DNA of 64,000 nucleotides from the sequence record MW741821.1. One strand, given 5' to 3'. Position numbers and translations under genes: made by a program. The notes beneath the pieces were generated by a model. It was not told the DNA's origin. It searched no databases and worked only from the letters and a program-made list of their open reading frames with translations. The DNA is from Escherichia phage vB_EcoP_DE5. Each line of letters begins with the position of its first letter. Within the stretch, counting starts at the first letter, position 1. Of this stretch, positions 4,051-35,372 are shown piece after piece.

Positions 4051-4106
4051 TTAAAACTCCTTAATATATCAGTGTACACTAAGGAGTATACATTATAAGT
4101 TACTGT

Positions 4107-23684: not shown

Positions 23685-23701
23685 ATTTCCTCTCATTGAA
23701 T

Positions 23702-23728
23702 TTAAAAAAGGACTCTCCGAAAAGAGTC
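23702..23728 (-). terminator. Rho-independent terminator (minus strand)
   Basis: Hairpin GACUCU-UUUCGG-AGAGUC followed by CUUUUUU. Confidence 0.55.
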
Positions 23729-23920
23729 AAGCTTTAAATCCAAAAAAGATATTACCCAATATCTGTGGATAACCTGCTCTTAAAATATCTATCCGACGGA
23801 TGTTCGAGGAATATTCCTCTCTTTAGCATCGGCCCCATACGGGAAATATATTAAGATTAGGTTAGTTGAGTCAGAATAACTCACATAGCCCTCCGAAGAA
23901 GGCTATAGGCGTTACTACAA

Positions 23921-24139: not shown

Positions 24140-24369
24140 TCACCTTTCTTAGCACGATCTTTGGCAGTTTTGCCAGTGCGGATGCGATGAGAAACGTTAA
24201 CCAGAGTGCCACCATCAACTACGGTAACGCTCTTATTTTTAGCCAGATCAAACACAGTCTTCTCTGTACCACCCAAGCGAATTTGCTTAGGTTCGCTGAA
24301 GGTTTGGGTTGATTTGGATTGGAACTGAAACGGTTGACGGATTGCATCGATTGCGCTTACTTTAGACAT
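24136..24369 (-). CDS. hypothetical protein
   Basis: 77 aa; AAGGAA SD. Confidence 0.45.
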   Translation of the reverse strand: MSKVSAIDAIRQPFQFQSKSTQTFSEPKQIRLGGTEKTVFDLAKNKSVTVVDGGTLVNVSHRIRTGKTAKDRAKKGE

Positions 24370-24383
24370 AGGGGAAATTCCTT

Positions 24384-24419
24384 AAAAAATTATGGCTGCG
24401 TAGAGGGAATTCCCTACGC
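24384..24419 (-). terminator. hairpin plus U-tract (terminator-like) after conserved element
   Basis: GCGUAGGGAAUUCCCUCUACGC hairpin then UUUUUU about 8 nt downstream. Confidence 0.4.
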
Positions 24420-24433
24420 AAATCGGGCCGCCC

Positions 24434-24462
24434 ACAGAGAGGCGTCATAGTACTAAAAGGAG
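24434..24462 (-). repeat. conserved 25-30 nt intergenic element (copy 1) containing TTTTAGTACTATGACGC
   Basis: Near-identical element at 31566-31597, each followed on the minus strand by a hairpin/U-tract. Confidence 0.5.
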
Positions 24463-24601
24463 GAGAGAAGAGGGCTTATTTAGCTACCTTTTTCTGTCCG
24501 TTTACGAACCAGATAATTGAACCGTCAGGCTGTCGTTGACCGAAGCCTTTCTGGTTAATCATATCGTCATAAGAATATGCTTTACGTCTCATTTGTTTTC
24601 C

Positions 24602-24856
24602 CTACGAAGTTAAGATGATTTCAGCCTTAATAAACTTCTCACCAACAACCATATCACCAGAGATGACACGTAGTTCTCCAGTGCCTAGGTTAACAGCTCC
24701 AGCAGGTTGACAACCCCTGCTTTTAGCTGTCATCATATAAACCTTTTGATTTTGGCACTCTTGGAGAGTGAACACATCTGACATATTTAGATCTCTGACG
24801 CGGAGGATTTTTTCCTCTTTGTCTTTAACTTTAATGTTAATAATGCTCATATGCAC
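24602..24856 (-). CDS. small protein, paralog family member
   Basis: 84 aa; tandem array, N-terminal K-rich segment followed by L..L..GDVF-like motif. Confidence 0.5.
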   Translation of the reverse strand: MHMSIINIKVKDKEEKILRVRDLNMSDVFTLQECQNQKVYMMTAKSRGCQPAGAVNLGTGELRVISGDMVVGEKFIKAEIILTS

Positions 24857-25101
24857 TACTCCTGAACCACTGACATACGAATCATTTCTACCTGATCATC
24901 AAGACCTTTAACAGATAACATACCTGTGGAAAGGTTTACCACAGGAACCCAACCACTGGCTATACGGATGTTACCAGAAGCATTTTCAACCCTCATGTAA
25001 TACTGAGGAGAGGCACTTCCGTTCTGAACCACGAAAGGGTTTCCGGGAATGATTGTTTCCAATCGTACCGTATTATCCTTTTTCTTTGGGATGATTTTCA
25101 T
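24856..25101 (-). CDS. small protein, paralog family member
   Basis: 81 aa; MKIIPKKKDNTVRLETIIPGNPF. Confidence 0.5.
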   Translation of the reverse strand: MKIIPKKKDNTVRLETIIPGNPFVVQNGSASPQYYMRVENASGNIRIASGWVPVVNLSTGMLSVKGLDDQVEMIRMSVVQE

Positions 25102-25349
25102 TGCGTATTATCCACCAAAAGTTCTGCTGATACAGGAACAACTCGGCACCAGATAGAAGGTGCTGTTACGTTACCATCGGATAGACGAAGAGTAATTGTT
25201 CGATCAGAGTTAACGGTTACATTAGGACTTTCAGACACAGACCCTTTAACATAGAGAGTAGCACTCTCAGGGAATTTAAACACTGCTCCGCTGGGGAGGG
25301 AGTTGAGATCAATCGTGGTCACTTCTTCTTTCTTGTGGGTAATCTTCAT
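25098..25349 (-). CDS. small protein, paralog family member
   Basis: 83 aa; MKITHKKEEVTTIDLNSLPSGAVF. Confidence 0.5.
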   Translation of the reverse strand: MKITHKKEEVTTIDLNSLPSGAVFKFPESATLYVKGSVSESPNVTVNSDRTITLRLSDGNVTAPSIWCRVVPVSAELLVDNTQ

Positions 25350-25600
25350 TTAGAATCCTTAATAACGTTAGCTTCAACCTTAACAGGAATAACAGAGATG
25401 CCCTCAACGGGGCCACTTAAGTGTCCATCTTCCAGTCTGACACACACGACTCGATCTCGTGCAACTTCTACCCAATTAGTAGATGCCGCAGTACAGACCA
25501 TATGAATTGGACCGTTCTCTTCCAGCCGGAAGGTATCGCCCTTCTTCAGAGTGTGGAGTTTCACAGTCTTGATAGTTTTGTTCAATTCGTTAACTTTCAT
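25346..25600 (-). CDS. small protein, paralog family member
   Basis: 84 aa; MKVNELNKTIKTVKLHTLKKGDTF. Confidence 0.5.
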   Translation of the reverse strand: MKVNELNKTIKTVKLHTLKKGDTFRLEENGPIHMVCTAASTNWVEVARDRVVCVRLEDGHLSGPVEGISVIPVKVEANVIKDSK

Positions 25601-25608
25601 ATTGATTC

Positions 25609-25920
25609 CTATTTAAGTTTGAGGCTAATGTTAAGGTGCATACATGCTCTGTTCTGTACAGCAGCATAACTTCTACCGAGCATGTCAGCCATTCTCTGAA
25701 TAGACATGAACCCAGCATTACGGATAAGGAACTGGTCCTCTTCTTCAGACCATTTAACTCGGATTGAAGCTCTTGATATGCCGAATTTAGTGCAAGCTGT
25801 GTTAACAGCATTCTCCGTTACATTCATAATCTGAGCTACTTCTTGAACCGAGTACTCTTTGATTAGTCTCCGAAGATTTTCAATCTGCATCGGAGTCCAT
25901 ATAGTTCTTCGTGCTTTCAT
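25609..25920 (-). CDS. DNA-binding protein with two tandem Myb/SANT-like helix-turn-helix repeats
   Basis: 103 aa; two W-[TS]-x-E-E-D...L repeats (RRTIWTPMQIENLRRL... and VKWSEEEDQFLIRNAG...). Confidence 0.5.
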   Translation of the reverse strand: MKARRTIWTPMQIENLRRLIKEYSVQEVAQIMNVTENAVNTACTKFGISRASIRVKWSEEEDQFLIRNAGFMSIQRMADMLGRSYAAVQNRACMHLNISLKLK

Positions 25921-26415
25921 ACATCCTCCAATTAATTGTTAAAACTATCAGGGGAGAACACTAGCTCTGGGCCACGCTGTAGATATTGGCCTACCTTCCA
26001 CAGCTAATCAGCTAATATACTCCCCTAATAGTTTATGAATAGGGGGAGGGGACGAATCCTCCCTTATCCTATTAGTTAATATTGCATGTAAGATCTAACA
26101 ATCGGTTGCCTTTGTAGGAATAAGCGTAAAGCCAATCCAGCACTAAACTCCCGCCCCCTTAGTGGGCTGGGTTATTAAAGGGTAACGCCCTTATGGGCTA
26201 GTTACATGAATGTTAGTTTGATAGGAGATCTGAAGTCCTATCTCAAAGGACTCTCGTAAGAATCCTTCACGATATTACTTATTCATCTCTCGTCGGCTAT
26301 CTCTCCAAGCCAACCAAGTGTAGGTTTTCAGTTCTTCAAAGTCTTCTGGAGAGAATAGATACTCTTTGAAGGTGTTCCCAAACCACTCTAAAAATTCTTC
26401 AGTCATAAGATTCTC

Positions 26416-26589
26416 TTAACAAGATTGGTCACACGGCTGATCACCACATGTTTTACAGATCACTGGTGAGTAACTACAGGCAGGATAAACAGACACCCCA
26501 TCAAACGTCTCACATCCACAATCAGGACATGTACCGTTGGATTCCATGTCATCATCGTCATCTACTTCACCGCCACCAAAACAACTCAT
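26416..26589 (-). CDS. small acidic Cys-rich protein
   Basis: 57 aa hand-translated (MSCFGGGEVDDDDDMESNGTCPDCGC...), AAGGAG SD; below track cutoff. Confidence 0.4.
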   Translation of the reverse strand: MSCFGGGEVDDDDDMESNGTCPDCGCETFDGVSVYPACSYSPVICKTCGDQPCDQSC

Positions 26590-26598
26590 ACAGGCTCC

Positions 26599-26820
26599 TT
26601 AGTAAACTAAACCTGTAGCCTTTGCATCAGGCTGAGGGACTACTTTTGCACTAGGGCGATAGCCATCCACTGAGCCGTTCCAAAGATTGACACAGGTGAT
26701 ATATCCATCGTCTATGATGTCTGTTTTAATCCAGAAGTGTTTATCATGACCAAAAATACTTCCGTTTGGCAGCGTGGACAATTCAACAGTTTTAAGTGAC
26801 TGCTTAGAGTCTAGTTTCAT
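26599..26820 (-). CDS. small protein, paralog family member
   Basis: 73 aa; MKLDSKQSLKTVELSTLPNGSIF. Confidence 0.5.
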   Translation of the reverse strand: MKLDSKQSLKTVELSTLPNGSIFGHDKHFWIKTDIIDDGYITCVNLWNGSVDGYRPSAKVVPQPDAKATGLVY

Positions 26821-26829
26821 ATAAGTTCC

Positions 26830-27027
26830 TTAATATACCAAACCATGTAAAAGAAACATCCTCTTTGTAAGCTCTGCTTTAGCTCTGTAATAAGCCTTAG
26901 AACCTAACAGGCGGCTCTTAACAAAGAACTTAATGTCATTGCTAACATCTTGTATTAAACGCTCCTGTACAGTTTCTGAGGAGTTATTAATCGAATCAAT
27001 TAACACCTTTGTAGATGTGTAATTCAT
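26830..27027 (-). CDS. hypothetical protein
   Basis: Track ORF 26830-27219 trimmed to internal Met with AAGGAG SD (65 aa). Confidence 0.4.
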   Translation of the reverse strand: MNYTSTKVLIDSINNSSETVQERLIQDVSNDIKFFVKSRLLGSKAYYRAKAELTKRMFLLHGLVY

Positions 27028-27028
27028 A

Positions 27029-27328
27029 TCACCACTCCTTACCGGTTGTAATCGTAGAGCCACCACACCACAATGCTGTATCAATAACAACATTATCCGG
27101 TGTAGACTTCTCTTCGTTGATAGAAGGGTTAGCATTAGAACAGGTTGCTCCGTTCCATCGCATATCAATTTCACCAGAAGGAATCTTCTCACCCTTATGC
27201 CAGCGAGAAACACAAACACCTTCCACTGCTACTGCACACCATCCATCAGGACGGCTCTGTACGCAGCCTGTAAGGGCTATGCAGACAAGGAAGATACAGA
27301 TTAAGGATATTACACCACCCCAACTCAT
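27029..27328 (-). CDS. predicted lipoprotein
   Basis: 99 aa; signal peptide with lipobox ALTGC; AGGAGGT SD. Confidence 0.6.
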   Translation of the reverse strand: MSWGGVISLICIFLVCIALTGCVQSRPDGWCAVAVEGVCVSRWHKGEKIPSGEIDMRWNGATCSNANPSINEEKSTPDNVVIDTALWCGGSTITTGKEW

Positions 27329-27348
27329 AATTACCTCCTATTAGATTT

Positions 27349-27440
27349 GGTGGACTATCTGGAATCGAACCAGAAGCTCACTAAGAAAGTAATTCCCACT
27401 GTTATAAAAGCACTTGCCTCAACAGGGATACACTAACTCT
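27349..27440 (-). other. tRNA-like element (T-arm present; full cloverleaf not resolved)
   Basis: Minus-strand UCUGG-UUCGAUU-CCAGA T-arm followed by UAGUCCA-CCA, but no matching 5' acceptor strand found by hand. Confidence 0.3.
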
Positions 27441-27468
27441 GGTGCCGCACCCATACTAGCCCTAAATG

Positions 27469-27544
27469 TGGTGCGCCCTACAGGACTCGAACCTGTAACC
27501 AATAGCTTAGAAGGCTACTGCTCTATCCATTGAGCTAAGAGCGC
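27469..27544 (-). tRNA. tRNA-Arg (anticodon TCT)
   Basis: Hand-folded: acceptor GCGCTCT/AGGGCGC, D-arm GCTC-AATGGATA-GAGC, anticodon stem GTAGC/GCTAT with loop CTTCTAA, T-arm ACAGG-TTCGAGT-CCTGT, discriminator A, encoded CCA. Confidence 0.85.
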
Positions 27545-27719
27545 AGAATTATTTAGATCATATCTCGCTTGGTGATATGACCACATGTTTTACATCGAAG
27601 TATATAACGAGTACCTGTGTCTTCTATTTGACCAATCTCATTATATATGTGTAAACGAACTTCTTTTATTGTCTCCCAATCATGCAGATGGAATAGACGT
27701 TTAAACCACTTGAACATAA

Positions 27720-27953
27720 TTACACCACCTCAACGAGAGATGTTTTCCATGCAAACAGAGGTCCATTATCGTTAAGATAAACAGCTCCTCCCGTCTCGAA
27801 CGGAGTCCCATAAGGAAGTGCCCAAGCATACCCACGAATTTCTGGCTTATGGGTAAACCCATATACCTCGCCGTTGCTATCAGTTGCTAAATATCTTATA
27901 GAGCTGTCCACTTTAACAACTTCGCCAAAATATTTAACCTCTTTTCCTTTCAT
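27720..27953 (-). CDS. hypothetical protein
   Basis: Track ORF trimmed to MKGKEVKYF Met with GAGG SD. Confidence 0.45.
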   Translation of the reverse strand: MKGKEVKYFGEVVKVDSSIRYLATDSNGEVYGFTHKPEIRGYAWALPYGTPFETGGAVYLNDNGPLFAWKTSLVEVV

Positions 27954-27960
27954 ATTAACC

Positions 27961-28212
27961 TCAAGCACAAGCAGGGAGTGTGATGATTTTATGCTTACCA
28001 TCAAATTCTCCAAATAAACCTAAGAATGTGGGACTGTAAGTTCCAGTACAAACAAACTCATCAAACAATGCGTTATAACTAGGCTTGATCTTCCAAGCCC
28101 ATACATAACCCATCTTGTCAATTGCAATGTAACGAGTGTTCAGAGGAACAGTCATCATTATACCATCAACTTCGATCACTTTAGTGATTGGTGCAGCTTG
28201 GAAGTTTTTCAT
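27961..28212 (-). CDS. hypothetical protein
   Basis: 83 aa ORF. Confidence 0.45.
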   Translation of the reverse strand: MKNFQAAPITKVIEVDGIMMTVPLNTRYIAIDKMGYVWAWKIKPSYNALFDEFVCTGTYSPTFLGLFGEFDGKHKIITLPACA

Positions 28213-28385
28213 ACTTTACCTTTGATAAAAATGTCATTACCACAGACACAGCATGAACGAACAACAGTAGCGCCACGCTGAACAATACGAACCTCTTCCT
28301 TAACCAGACTAATACGAGCACCGCAGCAAGGAGAGTTGACATAAGAGTAACCAGCTTGCGTATGTTTGATTATTTGCTTAGACAT
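28209..28385 (-). CDS. small zinc-ribbon protein
   Basis: 58 aa hand-translated (…SPCCGAR…SCCVCGN…); ATGA overlap with downstream gene. Confidence 0.4.
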   Translation of the reverse strand: MSKQIIKHTQAGYSYVNSPCCGARISLVKEEVRIVQRGATVVRSCCVCGNDIFIKGKV

Positions 28386-28731
28386 TTGATTCTAGATCTC
28401 TTAGTTGTTCAGCCAATTGTTCGCATTCATTAACGCAGAACTCTTCTGTTCTTGGTATCCCGTTAGGGTTGAACCGTGTCTTATCACCTGCATGGGCACA
28501 ATCAAATCCGATTGTATCTAAACCACCCATCTCTTCAAGGGTGTCTTGCCATGTGACACCACCATGAACACTTACATAACAAACCTCTTCCTTTCCGTTA
28601 TATCCGGTGAAGTTTTTATGTTTTAAGCTGTCTGGTAGCTCTACATATCCACAAAAATGGGAGTCGTTCATGTGCATAATCACAGCACGAAGACCTGATT
28701 TAGTGACCCAATCTTTAACCATGCGTCTCAT
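28378..28731 (-). CDS. hypothetical protein
   Basis: Track ORF trimmed to MRRMVKDW Met with GGTG SD (117 aa). Confidence 0.45.
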   Translation of the reverse strand: MRRMVKDWVTKSGLRAVIMHMNDSHFCGYVELPDSLKHKNFTGYNGKEEVCYVSVHGGVTWQDTLEEMGGLDTIGFDCAHAGDKTRFNPNGIPRTEEFCVNECEQLAEQLRDLESNV

Positions 28732-28769
28732 ATAAGCACCTCTTGTTAGTTTAAGTAAGAGTTGTCCCT

Positions 28770-28803
28770 TAATTAAAACAACAAAGGCCACCCGAAGGCA
28801 GCC
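28770..28803 (-). terminator. Rho-independent terminator (possibly bidirectional)
   Basis: Hairpin GGCUGCC-UUCG-GGUGGCC with U-rich tracts on both sides. Confidence 0.55.
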
Positions 28804-29311
28804 TTTTATTTATTAACTGTTATACGTCCAATTACCTTGCTTGTTACGGATGGCTGACATTGCATGAATCCAAAAGCCTTCCAGTTTCAGAGCACCATTA
28901 GCTACTGCATCCATACGTTCAGGGCGGTTCATACGTTTGGTTGATACTTTCATACCTATCTCTCTTTGTTAGTGGAGGCATTATTGCCAGTTGATATAAG
29001 GGATAGCCCTAGTCAGTAGACTAACCCTGACCGCGTACTCATTGCCGACCTTCTCTGCCTAAGAGTTCAGGTTCTAGAGCTATCTCTTATTCCAACTGGT
29101 GAAGACTCCCTACCCCTAGGAAGTCTCCTGAATCCCAAACCAATACGTACCCCTACATATCGGAAAGTCTTTCGAAAATTAACAGGTTTTAGTCTAACAC
29201 CGGATGTTCGAGCAAGCTCTCCCTAGCGGTGTGGCATATGCCTGAATTAATAAGTTAATGAGGAACACCCTCACATAGCCCTCTGATAAACACAAGGGCT
29301 ATAAGTCGGTG

Positions 29312-29530
29312 TTACTTTTGGGATAAACACAGATCAGGTCGTGGCATAACAGTGGTTGATAGACCGAAGACTTCAACAGAACCACTGCTCAAGTTAGCAG
29401 CCTTACACAAACCATCAGGGGTTTTATCTTCTAGCATCAGCCAGAAACGTTTATCATAAGAGAAAACATCACCACCTTTAACGTCCTCTGCATTTGCATA
29501 TTTAGGATAATCAACTACTTTAATTTCCAT
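29312..29530 (-). CDS. small protein, paralog family member
   Basis: 72 aa; ...AEDVKGGDVFSYDKRFW. Confidence 0.5.
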   Translation of the reverse strand: MEIKVVDYPKYANAEDVKGGDVFSYDKRFWLMLEDKTPDGLCKAANLSSGSVEVFGLSTTVMPRPDLCLSQK

Positions 29531-29540
29531 CTAATTGCCC

Positions 29541-29759
29541 TTATTGATATATAGAAAGGTGGATAAGTTTATTAACATGAGCGAAGTTAGGAAGGATTTG
29601 CATCTCATTGTTGAAGATATTAAAACAACGAACCCCGCCCTCTACAGCATAAGCAGATTTCTGAAACAGACTGCCTCCCCACACAAATACATCATGTGTT
29701 TCAAGAGATCGTAACTGAACAGCCTCGTCAACAACCTTCTTTTCAATGTTCATATTCAC
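29541..29759 (-). CDS. small protein, paralog family member
   Basis: 72 aa; ...LRSLETHDVF. Confidence 0.5.
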   Translation of the reverse strand: MNMNIEKKVVDEAVQLRSLETHDVFVWGGSLFQKSAYAVEGGVRCFNIFNNEMQILPNFAHVNKLIHLSIYQ

Positions 29760-30007
29760 TTCCGATTGGTAATTACTGCATCATGGATAACTGAAACAGG
29801 TAAGTTTGAATCTAGCTTCATTACTTGATTGGTGCTTAAACTGAGCACTACACAACCATTCCGAAGATCAGTCTCTGACACATGTGGTGTATATAACTGA
29901 ACGATCATGTAATAATCAATACATGTTGCCTTAACTTGGAATACATCACCAAGTTTCAAATCACCCACACACAATTCTTTAGCTTTCATCTCAAGATCAA
30001 TCTTCAT
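29756..30007 (-). CDS. small protein, paralog family member
   Basis: 83 aa; ...VGDLKLGDVFQV. Confidence 0.5.
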   Translation of the reverse strand: MKIDLEMKAKELCVGDLKLGDVFQVKATCIDYYMIVQLYTPHVSETDLRNGCVVLSLSTNQVMKLDSNLPVSVIHDAVITNRK

Positions 30008-30233
30008 CTTTAGCCTCTATGTTGGTTATGTGAAGATCACTACGTACTTGGCAGACTTCATCCCGTTTAAAAGGCATGAGCTTTCCAGTTACCACATCAA
30101 CACAGTTGACATAATTGTCTGCGTACAATGTGTCGGTTCTGATGTAAAGGGATTCTTTACGCTCAAACAGAACCCCCGGCTTCATGTTATTTAAGCGAAG
30201 CATTGTACGATCGGATTTAATATTAACTTTCAT
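29997..30233 (-). CDS. small protein, paralog family member
   Basis: 78 aa; ...LNNMKPGVLFER. Confidence 0.5.
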   Translation of the reverse strand: MKVNIKSDRTMLRLNNMKPGVLFERKESLYIRTDTLYADNYVNCVDVVTGKLMPFKRDEVCQVRSDLHITNIEAKDED

Positions 30234-30235
30234 CT

Positions 30236-30493
30236 TTAATCCACCTTATTGGTAAGTCGAGCATTATCAACTACCTGAACAACAGTATCTTTTCTCAACA
30301 TTGTTATTCTATCCGAAGTGAGATCTACTACTACTCTTTCGTCAGGCTTCCAACTAGCTGAATAAACGGTTGAGGAATCTAGCTTTACTGTAAGATATAT
30401 TTTATTTTTAGGTGGAACAGTTTCAAAAACACTCCCCACCTTCAGGTCTTTCAGTTGCTTGACTACAGGGGCTGTATTAATATCATGCTTCAT
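30236..30493 (-). CDS. small protein, paralog family member
   Basis: Trimmed to MKHDINT Met with AGGAG SD; ...LKDLKVGSVFETV. Confidence 0.5.
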   Translation of the reverse strand: MKHDINTAPVVKQLKDLKVGSVFETVPPKNKIYLTVKLDSSTVYSASWKPDERVVVDLTSDRITMLRKDTVVQVVDNARLTNKVD

Positions 30494-30779
30494 TGTTAAT
30501 CTCCTGCTGTTTAGCAATAGCCACTCGCAAGTCTTCATTAGCACGAGCAAGGCGTAACACTTCGTGGTTGAGGTTCTGAAGACGCTTGTTTCTGTCCTCT
30601 ACTTGCATAATAAGATCATTAAGTGTTACTTTAACTTTCTCATTATACATCTCATCCACTCGAACTAGGGATTTATACATTCTCTCCCAGCTTGCTGCTT
30701 TGTTTCTGAGAATAATAAATCCTAGAACGCTGATAGTTAAACAGCTTACAAAAAGGAATTTATATACTTCTAAAGTCAT
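30483..30779 (-). CDS. membrane-anchored coiled-coil protein
   Basis: 98 aa; N-terminal hydrophobic helix then heptad-like charged region. Confidence 0.45.
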   Translation of the reverse strand: MTLEVYKFLFVSCLTISVLGFIILRNKAASWERMYKSLVRVDEMYNEKVKVTLNDLIMQVEDRNKRLQNLNHEVLRLARANEDLRVAIAKQQEINNEA

Positions 30780-30978
30780 ATTATTTACCCTTTATCAGAG
30801 ATTAAAAGTAATATTATTTAAGTAAGTTATATTTAGTAAACTTATTTTCTAAGAAATTTTCAAAGGGTCTATATACAGAGCATTACCCATAGTCCCAGAA
30901 TACTGCCATCTTTTTCAATAAATTTACTAAGTGGTTGGTTTATAAAGGAATTTAGTTTGTCAAATCTGGCACTAGTGA

Positions 30979-31368
30979 TTATTCCCTAGAGCTATTATCG
31001 AACACTAAATCACCACAATACATAGGATTGGCATACCATTTTGGCACCCCTTCGCTCTTACTCTGAAAGTAAGTCCCACTGTACAGCGGAACATAATTCT
31101 TCTTAAGGGCACGTTTAGCTAGCCTCTCGCTTTCTCCAATGGCTTGCTTAGTCATCGGATTTTTATCACGAATCAGCTTTACATAACGTTTATAAGGTTT
31201 CTCCTGTTTTAATAGTACCGGAATCCACTCAAACTGGTTCTTTTGTCTTATCACCTGTTCAGCGGTCAGTTTTCGTTGGGCCATTCTATTTATCACGGTA
31301 TCCGCAACTAAAGCCTTACATGCGGTTGGCTGATTCCCTGCCTCATAATAAATAGTCAATGTCAACAT
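30979..31368 (-). CDS. cell wall hydrolase (SleB-like)
   Basis: 129 aa; EAGNQPTACKALVADTVINR resembles the conserved N-terminal block of SleB-type hydrolases. Confidence 0.55.
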   Translation of the reverse strand: MLTLTIYYEAGNQPTACKALVADTVINRMAQRKLTAEQVIRQKNQFEWIPVLLKQEKPYKRYVKLIRDKNPMTKQAIGESERLAKRALKKNYVPLYSGTYFQSKSEGVPKWYANPMYCGDLVFDNSSRE

Positions 31369-31502
31369 TAGCTGTGCCGTTGTTATCAGAACTTGATACC
31401 TCCTGTTTTACGGGCATAAAAAAGCCCCAGCCGTAGCCGGGGCAAACCTGAAAGCAACACATGACCGTTGCTATAAATACACTCGCAAATGCACTTACAG
31501 CA

Positions 31503-31528
31503 ACGCAAAAAGCCGCTCAAAGGCGGCT
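31503..31528 (-). terminator. Rho-independent terminator (minus strand)
   Basis: Hairpin AGCCGCC-UUUGA-GCGGCU followed by UUUUUG. Confidence 0.55.
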
Positions 31529-31565
31529 ATGCGGAAGCTTCAAATGGGGAGAGGGCACGACGCGA

Positions 31566-31597
31566 CAGAAAGAGCGTCATAGTACTAAAAAGAGAGG
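31566..31597 (-). repeat. conserved 25-30 nt intergenic element (copy 2) containing TTTTAGTACTATGACGC
   Basis: Matches 24434-24462 with a few transitions; followed on the minus strand by terminator 31503-31528. Confidence 0.5.
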
Positions 31598-31758
31598 CTA
31601 TTGGAGAGGTTACTTATTGCCTTCCTTAATGCCTTGTTTTCTTGTTTAACCAATTCGTTTTCTTCTTGCAAGGATGCTACCAGATGGACCAGAACATCAA
31701 CTACTGCATCACCTTGCCGCATCTCTCTGACTTTATTTAGAATCTCTGAATAAATCAT
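31585..31758 (-). CDS. small hypothetical protein
   Basis: 57 aa hand-translated (MIYSEILNKVREMRQ...); ATGA overlap with upstream gene stop. Confidence 0.35.
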   Translation of the reverse strand: MIYSEILNKVREMRQGDAVVDVLVHLVASLQEENELVKQENKALRKAISNLSNSLSF

Positions 31759-33933: not shown

Positions 33934-34747
33934 CTTTCAATTGTAAGGGCGCTATTGCCCCGCTCTCTATGAGCTTGTTTAAGTCACTATTAACTTAACT
34001 ATAACCGCTAACTATTCAGTAGTTATAGGTAAGTGGGGCGGTCTTATCAGGAGTTAACCTTGCCGCCCCCTTATCCGTGATGTTTCATCTGGTATCTTTA
34101 ATTAGTCGCTATAAACGAAGCCGACCTGATAGCGATGATCAATCATCACAATAAGGCAGTGCGTCCGACTCTAATTAGTTACGTTATTGTAACCGTCGGC
34201 AATATCGTTTACTTTGCTTTCGCTCTCGCCTATCCTTTTATATCAACTCTCAATCGCTAGTCATCGCCCACTACGGGATACTATTGCGAAAGAGTCATTG
34301 ACCGTCTAATGTTCCGACGTTTTATATCTTTCGGCAAGTTTACTACATAAACCGACTATGTACTTTCATCATAAGATGAATCTCAAGCCGTTCACATCGT
34401 AAACGTTCACACTAAACCTTATTGTTAAATAGCAATTTGCCACTTTTTAACCACTCCCCGCCGCTCTCAATTGAGCGTTAATTCGTCGGGATTGCCTACC
34501 CTGATTAACTTCTTTCACCGTAGCACCATGTTAGCGATGACCGCCGCTACCCTTAACCGTGGGCGATTAGCTTAAGCCTTTGCGTGTACTCGATGAATCT
34601 GTTTATCAGTGGTGACGTTTCCAGTAAGGGAATGTAAAACTGTTTACCCTGATAATTTAGGGAGTTTTACGCCGTTTTATCTGGTATGTTATCCGATGGT
34701 TATTATCATCTAACATATTCAACCGATATAGGAGAATGTTTAAATTA

Positions 34748-35372
34748 TTAAAGAGCGGTAAATCTATCAGTGTGCTTTCTCACACTATGCAACTGTTAGC
34801 CGTTGTTACGCTTTTCACTGAAGCGATGATTTGCTTAGTGAGTGCTCATTATGAATCATGTTGTTTTCGCTGTCAACCGCTTTTTAATCTTTTTTCGTCG
34901 TTCCCGCTATTGGGAGGATATATCAATCAGCTTTATTTGATTGAAGATTAAGCGGTGAGGCTTAACTTATGACTCATATTGTTAAAGAGCGTTTAGCCTT
35001 TTAAAGTGTCTGCTAATCACTGTCACATTGAAGGCTTACTGATTCATTAACAGGCCGCCTACACCTGAACTAATCGCTGCACTATGTGCCACCTTTCCCG
35101 CGATACGTTGATTTGGGAACTAGTTAGCGATGTTTTGCTAACTTGTGGTTAGTATGGACTACTTTAACCACGTTTGCAACTCTTTTTATCATCTTCTTTT
35201 AATTCCTTTCCCTTATCTCGCGTGAATCTATGCGAAAGGGCAAGATGATAAGTTTTTAAAGAGCGGGATTTTTTAAGTCATCGCTGACTATGCTCACTAT
35301 ATATCAGGCTTTTTCTGGTGTCAATACTCTTTTTAAGTATTTTCACTTTCTAGCCTGATTTTTAAAGAGCGG
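34748..35372. repeat. four dispersed copies of TTAAAGAGCG(G) within an ORF-free region
   Basis: Copies at 34748-34758, 34982-34991, 35246-35256, 35362-35372; no ORF of 60 aa or more between 33950 and 35700 except one short frame. Confidence 0.55.

Follow-up and report, generated by a model that had tools for sequence, protein, structure and literature searches.

Two short, near-identical intergenic sites on the minus strand of a 64,000-nucleotide stretch of Escherichia phage vB_EcoP_DE5 (sequence record MW741821.1; the whole of this stretch is referred to as the window) are, as judged by comparison with related genomes, copies of a lineage-specific and strand-specific cis element that combines an invariant box with a structurally conserved hairpin (hp1) within the early operon. 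At minimum, the shared unit comprises the box and hp1 preceded by a pyrimidine tract. Although undescribed, the element belongs to a familiar class, that of cis-regulatory signals in the leaders of phage early operons. Among its possible functions we rank first, and tentatively, an RNA-level signal for the control of elongation or termination that would be nut-like or would resemble a reload site of the spacer-boxA type.

A 10-kb query around the two sites matched 144 phage records, headed by Escherichia phage SkaterBoy_Bas90 (98.7% identity) and including many phiEco32-like podophages (SU10, NJ01, Paul, WFI101126, ES17). On sequence comparison we take the window to come from a phiEco32-like podophage of the genus Kuravirus; its relatives belong to the Gordonclarkvirinae, which comprise Kuravirus, Nieuwekanaalvirus, and Suseptimavirus. 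Minus-strand genes, mostly tiny open reading frames (ORFs) of unknown function, run from about 8.5 to 37 kb, and by homology this operon of roughly 27 kb is taken to be the early cluster.

Recurrence of the two sites

The longest exact direct repeat in the window is a 17-mer that occurs exactly twice, both times between genes and on the minus strand.

24442-24458, minus strand: 17-mer of site 1, TTTTAGTACTATGACGC, with the invariant core TACTATGACGC at 24442-24452
31574-31590, minus strand: 17-mer of site 2, with the invariant core at 31574-31584
24459-24475, minus strand: pyrimidine-rich tract of site 1, GCCCTCTTCTCTCCTCC, directly after the TAA stop codon (24476-24478) of a 38-amino-acid (aa) ORF (phi32_94 homologue)

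When one indel is allowed, the similarity between the sites reaches about 28-30 nucleotides (nt), its upstream part being traceable to ATA(A/TA)GCCC plus the pyrimidine tract, and the near-identity over about 28 nt reported in the preliminary description therefore holds. The tract of site 1 is kept in Kuravirus and Suseptimavirus; at site 2, a 57-aa ORF (31585-31758) has its stop codon, TAG, at 31585-31587. No third copy of the 17-mer was found in the 64-kb window at up to three mismatches (0.15 matches expected), and scans of the same window with an 11-mer at up to two mismatches and with core plus hairpin likewise gave no further copies. The statistic within the window is marginal on its own because six of 50 composition-preserving shuffles also yielded a 17-mer repeat. 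The repeat is counted as real because both sites recur in relatives and the core survives in three genera while the flanks change: the 51-nt sites were matched in 96 and 76 phage records, nearly always at two places per record, and some 70-96 related genomes have the same pair. In all three genera a genome carries two copies, both invariably intergenic and on the transcribed strand, which supports the control-signal reading. The ORFs flanking the two sites are unrelated to each other (different PHROGs), and the conservation is strand-specific and falls in non-coding leaders, so the preliminary description was right to place it at the nucleotide level. An ancient segmental duplication of motif plus genes was rejected, as the flanking proteins are not paralogous.

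Other short direct repeats in the window include one of 26 nt at 85% identity (27377-27402 and 31057-31082) and an exact 16-mer (7360 and 36316).

Core sequence and hairpin structure

Both sites were extracted from approximately 25 genomes for comparison of the core and the hairpin. The core TACT(A/G)TGACGC is invariant in all three genera, and the bases just 5' of it read TTTTAG in Kuravirus, TTTA(A/G)C or GTCAAC in Suseptimavirus, and TTCAAC at site 1 of Nieuwekanaalvirus. The palindrome TAGTACTA, to which the preliminary description drew attention, is indeed present in both copies of the window, but Suseptimavirus has CAACTACTATGACGC in its place; because the bases upstream of the core differ by genus, the palindrome is a Kuravirus peculiarity and not the functional core, and its dispensability in Suseptimavirus argues against a symmetric DNA operator.

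GACGC(C) always forms the 5' arm of hp1, a short hairpin whose loop is rich in pyrimidines; hp1 overlaps the motif and had been missed in the preliminary description. Register-shifted 3' arms preserve it in every variant.

24427-24446, minus strand: hp1 of site 1, GACGCC / loop UCUCUGUG / GGCGGC, with core stem CGCC/GGCG
31559-31578, extendable to 31556-31581, minus strand: hp1 of site 2, GACGC / loop UCUUUCUGUC / GCGUC, reaching 8 base pairs (bp) with two G.U pairs when extended
hp1, Kuravirus site 1 class: CGCC / UCUCUGUG or UCUUUUUA / GGCG
hp1, Kuravirus site 2 class: GACGC / UCUUUCUGU(A/C) / GCGUC
hp1, Suseptimavirus site 1: CGCC / UCUCUUUUC / GGCG
hp1, Suseptimavirus site 2: GACGCUC / UUCUU / GAGCGUC
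hp1, Nieuwekanaalvirus site 1: GACGCU / UCUUUU / AGCGUC

Across these classes the stem has 4-8 bp, the loop 5-12 nt, and the folding energy ranges from -5 to -12.5 kcal/mol, with a 3' arm that reads GCGUC, GGCG, AGCGUC, or GAGCGUC according to class. The variable A/G of the core retains an A-U or a G.U pair in extended stems, the extra loop-proximal pairs are built from different bases in different classes, and an A.G mismatch at site 1 becomes A-U in phage WFI101126; in the XT73 genome there is a C.A mismatch at the top pair. The variable spacing of the arms, the differing loop-proximal pairs, and the reliance on G.U pairs point to a folded single strand, most simply RNA, rather than to a dimeric DNA operator.

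Longer-range pairing in the leaders was also considered. RNAalifold paired the UCCUU tract of site 1 weakly with the downstream Shine-Dalgarno (SD) sequence AAGGA. Folds of this type (CU-tract with SD, and UAUG with CAUR) were rejected, since the only changes in their support are one-sided or of the pyrimidine/purine type, and genomes with other downstream genes break them.

The AUG of the box (GUG in variants) might instead be the start codon of a mini-ORF or leader peptide that loads ribosomes onto the leader, a possibility to which we give very little credence. The variable core base does retain a start codon, ATG or GTG, and the ORF at site 1 extends to the ribosome-binding site (RBS) or start of the next gene. 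However, the box lacks a Shine-Dalgarno sequence, neither the sequence nor the length of the peptide is conserved (five codons, ending CTG TAG, in most Kuravirus copies of site 2, and a frame shifted by the length of the U-run at site 1), and at site 2 the AUG lies hidden within the extended stem.

Termination and processing downstream of the sites

Each site is followed by further predicted hairpins on the minus strand.

24396-24421, minus strand: hp2 of site 1, 10 bp, UUGCGUAGGG AAUUCC CUCUACGCAG, about -13.8 kcal/mol when folded with its 3' tail
24384-24389, minus strand: U6 run, 6 nt 3' of hp2, followed by the SD AAGGA (24379-24383) and the ATG (24367-24369) of the phi32_93 homologue
31506-31528, minus strand: terminator T1, a 6-bp hairpin (31511-31528), AGCCGC CUUUGA GCGGCU, then UUUUG; annotated as a terminator in WFI101126
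31467-31504, minus strand: long hairpin of 17-18 bp between T1 and T2
31418-31443, minus strand: strong terminator T2, hairpin at 31424-31443, GCCCCGGC UACG GCUGGGGC, then U6; annotated as a terminator in WFI101126 and Paul

Downstream of hp1 at site 2 the order is T1, the 17-18-bp hairpin, T2, and a cell-wall-hydrolase gene (Pfam Hydrolase_2), and the segment 31418-31560 folds with z = -5.3. T1 and T2 each have a G+C-rich hairpin directly before a U-tract, as tested for intrinsic terminators, and T1 follows the element by 30 nt in Kuravirus and by 9 nt in Suseptimavirus, which lacks the 31 nt that otherwise separate hp1 from T1. The element of site 2 thus precedes T1 and the strong T2 inside the early operon, and read-through is therefore required. 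The hairpin and U-tract that the preliminary description placed after each copy consequently hold in canonical form for T1 at site 2 but not for site 1, where hp2, although perfectly conserved in Kuravirus and Nieuwekanaalvirus (all ten pairs kept in 14 genomes), is not a canonical intrinsic terminator because the U6 run begins 6 nt past the stem (spacer CCAUAA). At site 1 of Suseptimavirus hp2 is absent, and hp1 is directly followed by GUUUUGGAGCUUCAAAAAAUG and a 414-nt gene with its RBS; a downstream hairpin with U-tract is thus no integral part of the element.

This absence bears on the proposal that the loci are a pair of genes for small non-coding RNAs, both of which would extend from the box to a terminator-like hairpin. 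Both Kuravirus loci do share the order box-hairpin, CCC(G/C)AUUUG, hairpin, U-run. Against this, the 3' module is lacking at site 1 of Suseptimavirus, the loci have no recognisable promoter and no Rfam match, and their target complementarity does not rise above background. We consider such genes highly improbable, and of the functions named in the preliminary description, whose general idea of a cis-regulatory signal stands, the short non-coding RNA is the weakest because its 3' module is missing in one genus. In a search with Rfam 15 covariance models, tRNA-Arg alone passed and nothing at either site reached E <= 5, and for an antisense or small RNA partner within the window the best duplex energies were no better than those of shuffled queries.

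The same hairpins bring in RNA processing or stability, a reading that we hold to be doubtful. An endoribonuclease, either host RNase E/G or a phage enzyme, would cut in the single-stranded, A/U-rich UUUUAGUACUAU, and the hairpin would then cap and protect either the downstream message at its 5' end or the upstream message at its 3' end, splitting the early RNA in the manner of the RNase III sites of T7. An A/U-rich single-stranded stretch lies directly 5' of a conserved hairpin in a long polycistronic early RNA, conserved non-coding leaders have their 5' boundary at the element whereas what lies upstream of it varies, and other structured non-coding segments together with the long hairpin in the same operon suggest processing at the RNA level. 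The early-region sites of T7 (R0.3-R1.3) are likewise repeated, conserved intergenic RNA structures in a long early transcript made by host polymerase. However, those sites differ from the present element in that hp1, at 4-8 bp, is far below the duplex required, only two copies exist, and conservation lies mainly in the single-stranded box; moreover, the invariance over 11 nt is much stricter than the known preferences of RNase E, an RN|WUU-type site is not evident by eye, there are two sites in some 27 kb, and no candidate phage nuclease was found among 30 early ORFs. An RNase III site, which takes a duplex (possibly irregular) of about 20 bp, was rejected for hp1, and the separate 17-18-bp hairpin at 31467-31504 is borderline in this respect. 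That hairpin is kept in Kuravirus, carries several one-sided changes in EP335, and may represent either a site of the RNase III type or a segment of a small RNA.

A strong SD, AGGAGG (31392-31404, minus strand), lies approximately 27 nt 5' of the annotated ATG of the hydrolase gene (31368) and has no normally spaced start codon. In EcoN5 the same SD serves an inserted gene, and the start of the hydrolase or its mode of translation may be unusual.

boxA elements and the control of elongation

The leader of the early operon contains matches to the gamma-proteobacterial boxA consensus, GYTCTTTAANA (PMC5725501), alongside its promoters.

34746-35371, minus strand: early-operon leader, with two strong sigma-70 promoter matches and four perfect boxA matches
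35324-35296 and 34876-34848, minus strand: the two strong sigma-70 promoter matches, from a promoter scan

The perfect boxA matches lie on the transcribed strand at 34746, 34980, 35254, and 35360, a fifth copy in the leader is near-consensus (TGCTATTTAACAA), and the window as a whole has six consensus matches where 0.49 are expected. In most of the genomes sampled from the three genera, four to five boxA elements are present at the corresponding position; no link between phiEco32 and boxA was found in the literature searched. These elements suggest that early elongation complexes would be Nus-modified and termination-resistant, as in rrn operons and lambda. At site 2 the hairpin, loop plus stem, includes CGCUCUUU, the first 8 nt of the leader boxAs, and other variants have GC(N)UCUU; the strongest C-over-G (rut-like) peak in the early region falls in the site 2 region as well.

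We compared the element with the nutL and nutR sites of lambda and with rrn boxA. The likeness is that two near-identical copies lie on the transcribed strand, that a short, conserved, single-stranded box stands beside a small hairpin, and that the copies lie 5' of terminators, downstream of a boxA-bearing leader, with CGCUCUUU in the site 2 hairpin. By the reading that we favour, the box UACU(A/G)UGACGC, which follows a pyrimidine tract and whose 3' half would nucleate a short hairpin with a U/C-rich, boxA-like loop, would be recognised as RNA by a trans-acting factor acting on elongating host RNA polymerase. Host Nus proteins, a phage protein, or both are candidates for this factor. Each site might then serve as a reload point or checkpoint, loosely like lambda nutL/nutR or an rrn spacer boxA, by which polymerases from the four early promoters could pass the internal terminators of the operon. 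Such a role would explain why the element is strand-specific, has a hairpin, exists in two identical copies, and stands before T1 and T2 in a boxA context. The authors of work on the related phage 7-11 describe its antitermination strategy as still to be defined (PMC8948821).

Several observations weigh against a control signal of this kind, and our confidence in it is accordingly low. The internal sites lack a full boxA: GCTCTTTCTGT at site 2 agrees at 7 of 10 specified positions, GCCTCTCTGTG at site 1 likewise falls short of the consensus, the AANA tail is missing from both, and the boxA-like motif is interrupted at site 1. The loop of hp1 varies in length and sequence, unlike that of lambda boxB, and nothing in nut or rrn signals corresponds to the invariant UACURUGA. 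The phage copies here are tandem within one operon and several kb from promoters. Pfam and PHROG scans of the 30 early ORFs gave no N-like, RNA-binding, or nuclease domain, although small N proteins could escape such scans. Site 1 has no canonical terminator, and in Suseptimavirus it has none at all, while a strong terminator at 33002-32975 has no box and hairpin ahead of it. In the comparison of related phages, for which the preliminary description had proposed a covariation analysis, hp1 is maintained through register-shifted 3' arms, but its core stem has no clean two-sided covariation because the 5' arm never varies. The control-signal reading thus leaves the invariant UACURUGA, the variable loop, and the terminator-free site 1 of Suseptimavirus unexplained.

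Searches beyond the Gordonclarkvirinae gave no credible copy of the element. Two pattern scans of IMG/VR, which were poorly specified and added little, returned more than 200 loci with a mean loop pyrimidine content of 0.50, as by chance, and Kuravirus-like contigs alone resembled the element; a metagenome scan with the upstream 147-aa protein recovered close relatives only. The motif string appeared in no relevant paper of the literature searched, and the promoter and terminator table of SU10 has no entry at these positions.

Promoters and promoter-like features

In phiEco32, the early genes have four sigma-70 promoters, all at the start of the cluster (PMC8948821), and the middle and late genes depend on the phage sigma factor gp36, with the consensus tAATGTAtA, aided by gp79 (PMC8948821, PMC12276001, PMC4281155). 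Like the gp36 promoters, the element is a short, phage-specific, conserved intergenic sequence in the same phage group, but the two are unrelated in sequence and the present sites lie in the early cluster. A gp36 promoter was rejected, as AATGTA is absent from the motif on both strands (tAATGTAtA being centred at -11.5; PMC8948821, PMC12276001); window matches to TAATGTATA lie elsewhere, e.g., at 4087, 8458, 46773, and 63844. A bipartite or extended sigma-70 promoter was likewise rejected, there being no -35 hexamer and no TG at -15/-14, and neither site appears in the consensus promoter scan; at the position 17 bp upstream stands GCCCTC or TCTCCA, and neither the two sites nor the genera have a conserved upstream sequence in common.

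What all copies do contain is the -10 feature of sigma-70 (A-11, T-7), as TACTAT or, in variants, TACTGT. The element could accordingly act at the DNA level, with TACTAT as a -10-like element of a -35-independent or factor-dependent promoter, perhaps once gp79 displaces sigma region 4, or as a sigma-dependent pause; at site 2, such a promoter would make short terminated RNAs unless these were antiterminated, as at lambda PR'-tR'. In favour of this, TACTAT holds the key -10 positions (T-12, A-11, T-7) and the sole variable base of the core falls at the tolerant -8, the -10 hexamers of the two strong early-promoter matches are likewise followed by GA, the element is co-oriented with the genes at the 5' edge of conserved leaders, and an early protein with a sigma-70 region-4-like helix-turn-helix (HTH) is encoded between the sites. 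The missing -35, TG extension, and upstream conservation nevertheless speak against it, as do the mismatch to the gp36 consensus and the report of only four early promoters, all at the cluster start. A transcript start 7 nt downstream would moreover fall inside the hairpin, leaving the conservation of the latter unexplained. We regard a promoter or pause signal as improbable.

Inspection by eye also rejected an RNase P substrate (hairpin plus CCA) and sites for CRP, PhoB, IHF, Tus/Ter, sigma-32, sigma-E, and RfaH (ops), none of which fits or none of which is conserved.

Variable gene content at the sites

The element marks the exact point where gene content changes. Upstream of site 2 there are at least four contexts, in which unrelated ORFs of 57-60 aa share the TAG of TTTTAG as their stop codon or an ORF is lacking altogether, and extra genes follow the site 2 leader in EcoN5 (five), SkaterBoy (a 918-bp coding sequence), and phiEco32. 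In EP335, site 1 is of the Suseptimavirus type and site 2 of the Kuravirus type. The 38-aa gene upstream of site 1, like the tract, shows about 90-95% identity between Kuravirus and Suseptimavirus, and the sequence farther upstream is unrelated; between genera, the box is thus conserved little better than conserved genes in its neighbourhood. A stronger signal is that both paralogous sites retain the same box and hairpin in every lineage.

Such switching raises the possibility of a module junction or recombination linker, a cassette of about 45-60 bp that would offer homology for the exchange of small early genes in co-infection, as proposed for the promoter-early stem-loop (PeSL) of T4, or alternatively of an operator for a DNA-binding early protein. 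Gene content switches exactly at the element (the contexts upstream of site 2 and the insertions in EcoN5 and SkaterBoy), the 414-nt gene of Suseptimavirus is inserted directly after the hairpin of site 1, and EP335 mixes site types. PeSL is similarly a short, conserved stem-loop cassette between small early genes where content varies among relatives. However, the present cassette has no sigma-70 promoter and two copies versus the dozens of PeSL in T4, and identity as a PeSL cassette was rejected on these grounds in spite of the stem-loop. Orientation is also strictly kept, the palindrome is not conserved, and the hairpin is maintained through register shifts, not identity, whereas homology exchange alone would not select for pairing. 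A junction or operator is in our estimation unlikely.

A link of the box to the downstream gene was rejected, because homologues of phi32_93 in the Vequintavirinae have ordinary sigma-70 promoters upstream and no box. These homologues (PHROG 6662), in the myophages KB57 and 4MG (L236, 590-680; L237, 600-680), adjoin tRNA genes and have promoters of the form TTGAC(A/G)-N17-TAGTAT; the phi32_93 gene travels without the box.

The neighbourhood of site 2 (31585-31758, minus strand, and the homologous positions in L007, L247, L001, and L010) is a hot spot of gene gain and loss.

Other features of the early cluster

27469-27544, within the minus-strand cluster: tRNA-Arg(UCU)
25609-25920, minus strand, between the two sites: 103-aa early protein with a sigma-70 region-4-type HTH (PF08281, E 1.7e-7), labelled in PHROG as "D5-like transcriptional regulator" and a candidate DNA-binding regulator
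23697-23920, 28954-29311 (minus strand), and 25921-26274: three big non-coding gaps of 224-358 nt
23880-23907 and 29270-29303: hairpin TATAGCC..GGGCTATGTGAG common to the first two of these gaps, which are paralogous
23797-23808 and 29201-29212: block CTCGAACATCCG, also shared by the two paralogous gaps, neither of which has an Rfam match
23764-23772, minus strand: perfect DnaA box TTATCCACA within the gap 23697-23920

Implications

The probability not taken up by the readings above falls to an element of no function or to another reading. Were the element only a processing site or a recombination linker, it would be an ordinary early-region feature; if a phage factor binds to it, a compact regulatory part would be gained as well. 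Few coliphages other than phiEco32 have a dissected transcription programme (sigma-70 early promoters, the gp36 sigma factor, and gp79), and the passage of polymerase through approximately 27 kb of early genes with several intrinsic terminators is so far unexplained. The two-copy signal and the boxA-rich leader offer concrete, mutable targets for this question of traversal. More speculatively, and with a probability that we set rather low, the element may be a new transcript signal in a virulent podophage, in which an early phage protein would bind the box and hairpin, possibly together with boxA-recruited Nus factors, giving staged resistance to terminators and a two-checkpoint, nut-like control of the early operon. 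If that were true, operons thought to run simply from four sigma-70 promoters would have such control.

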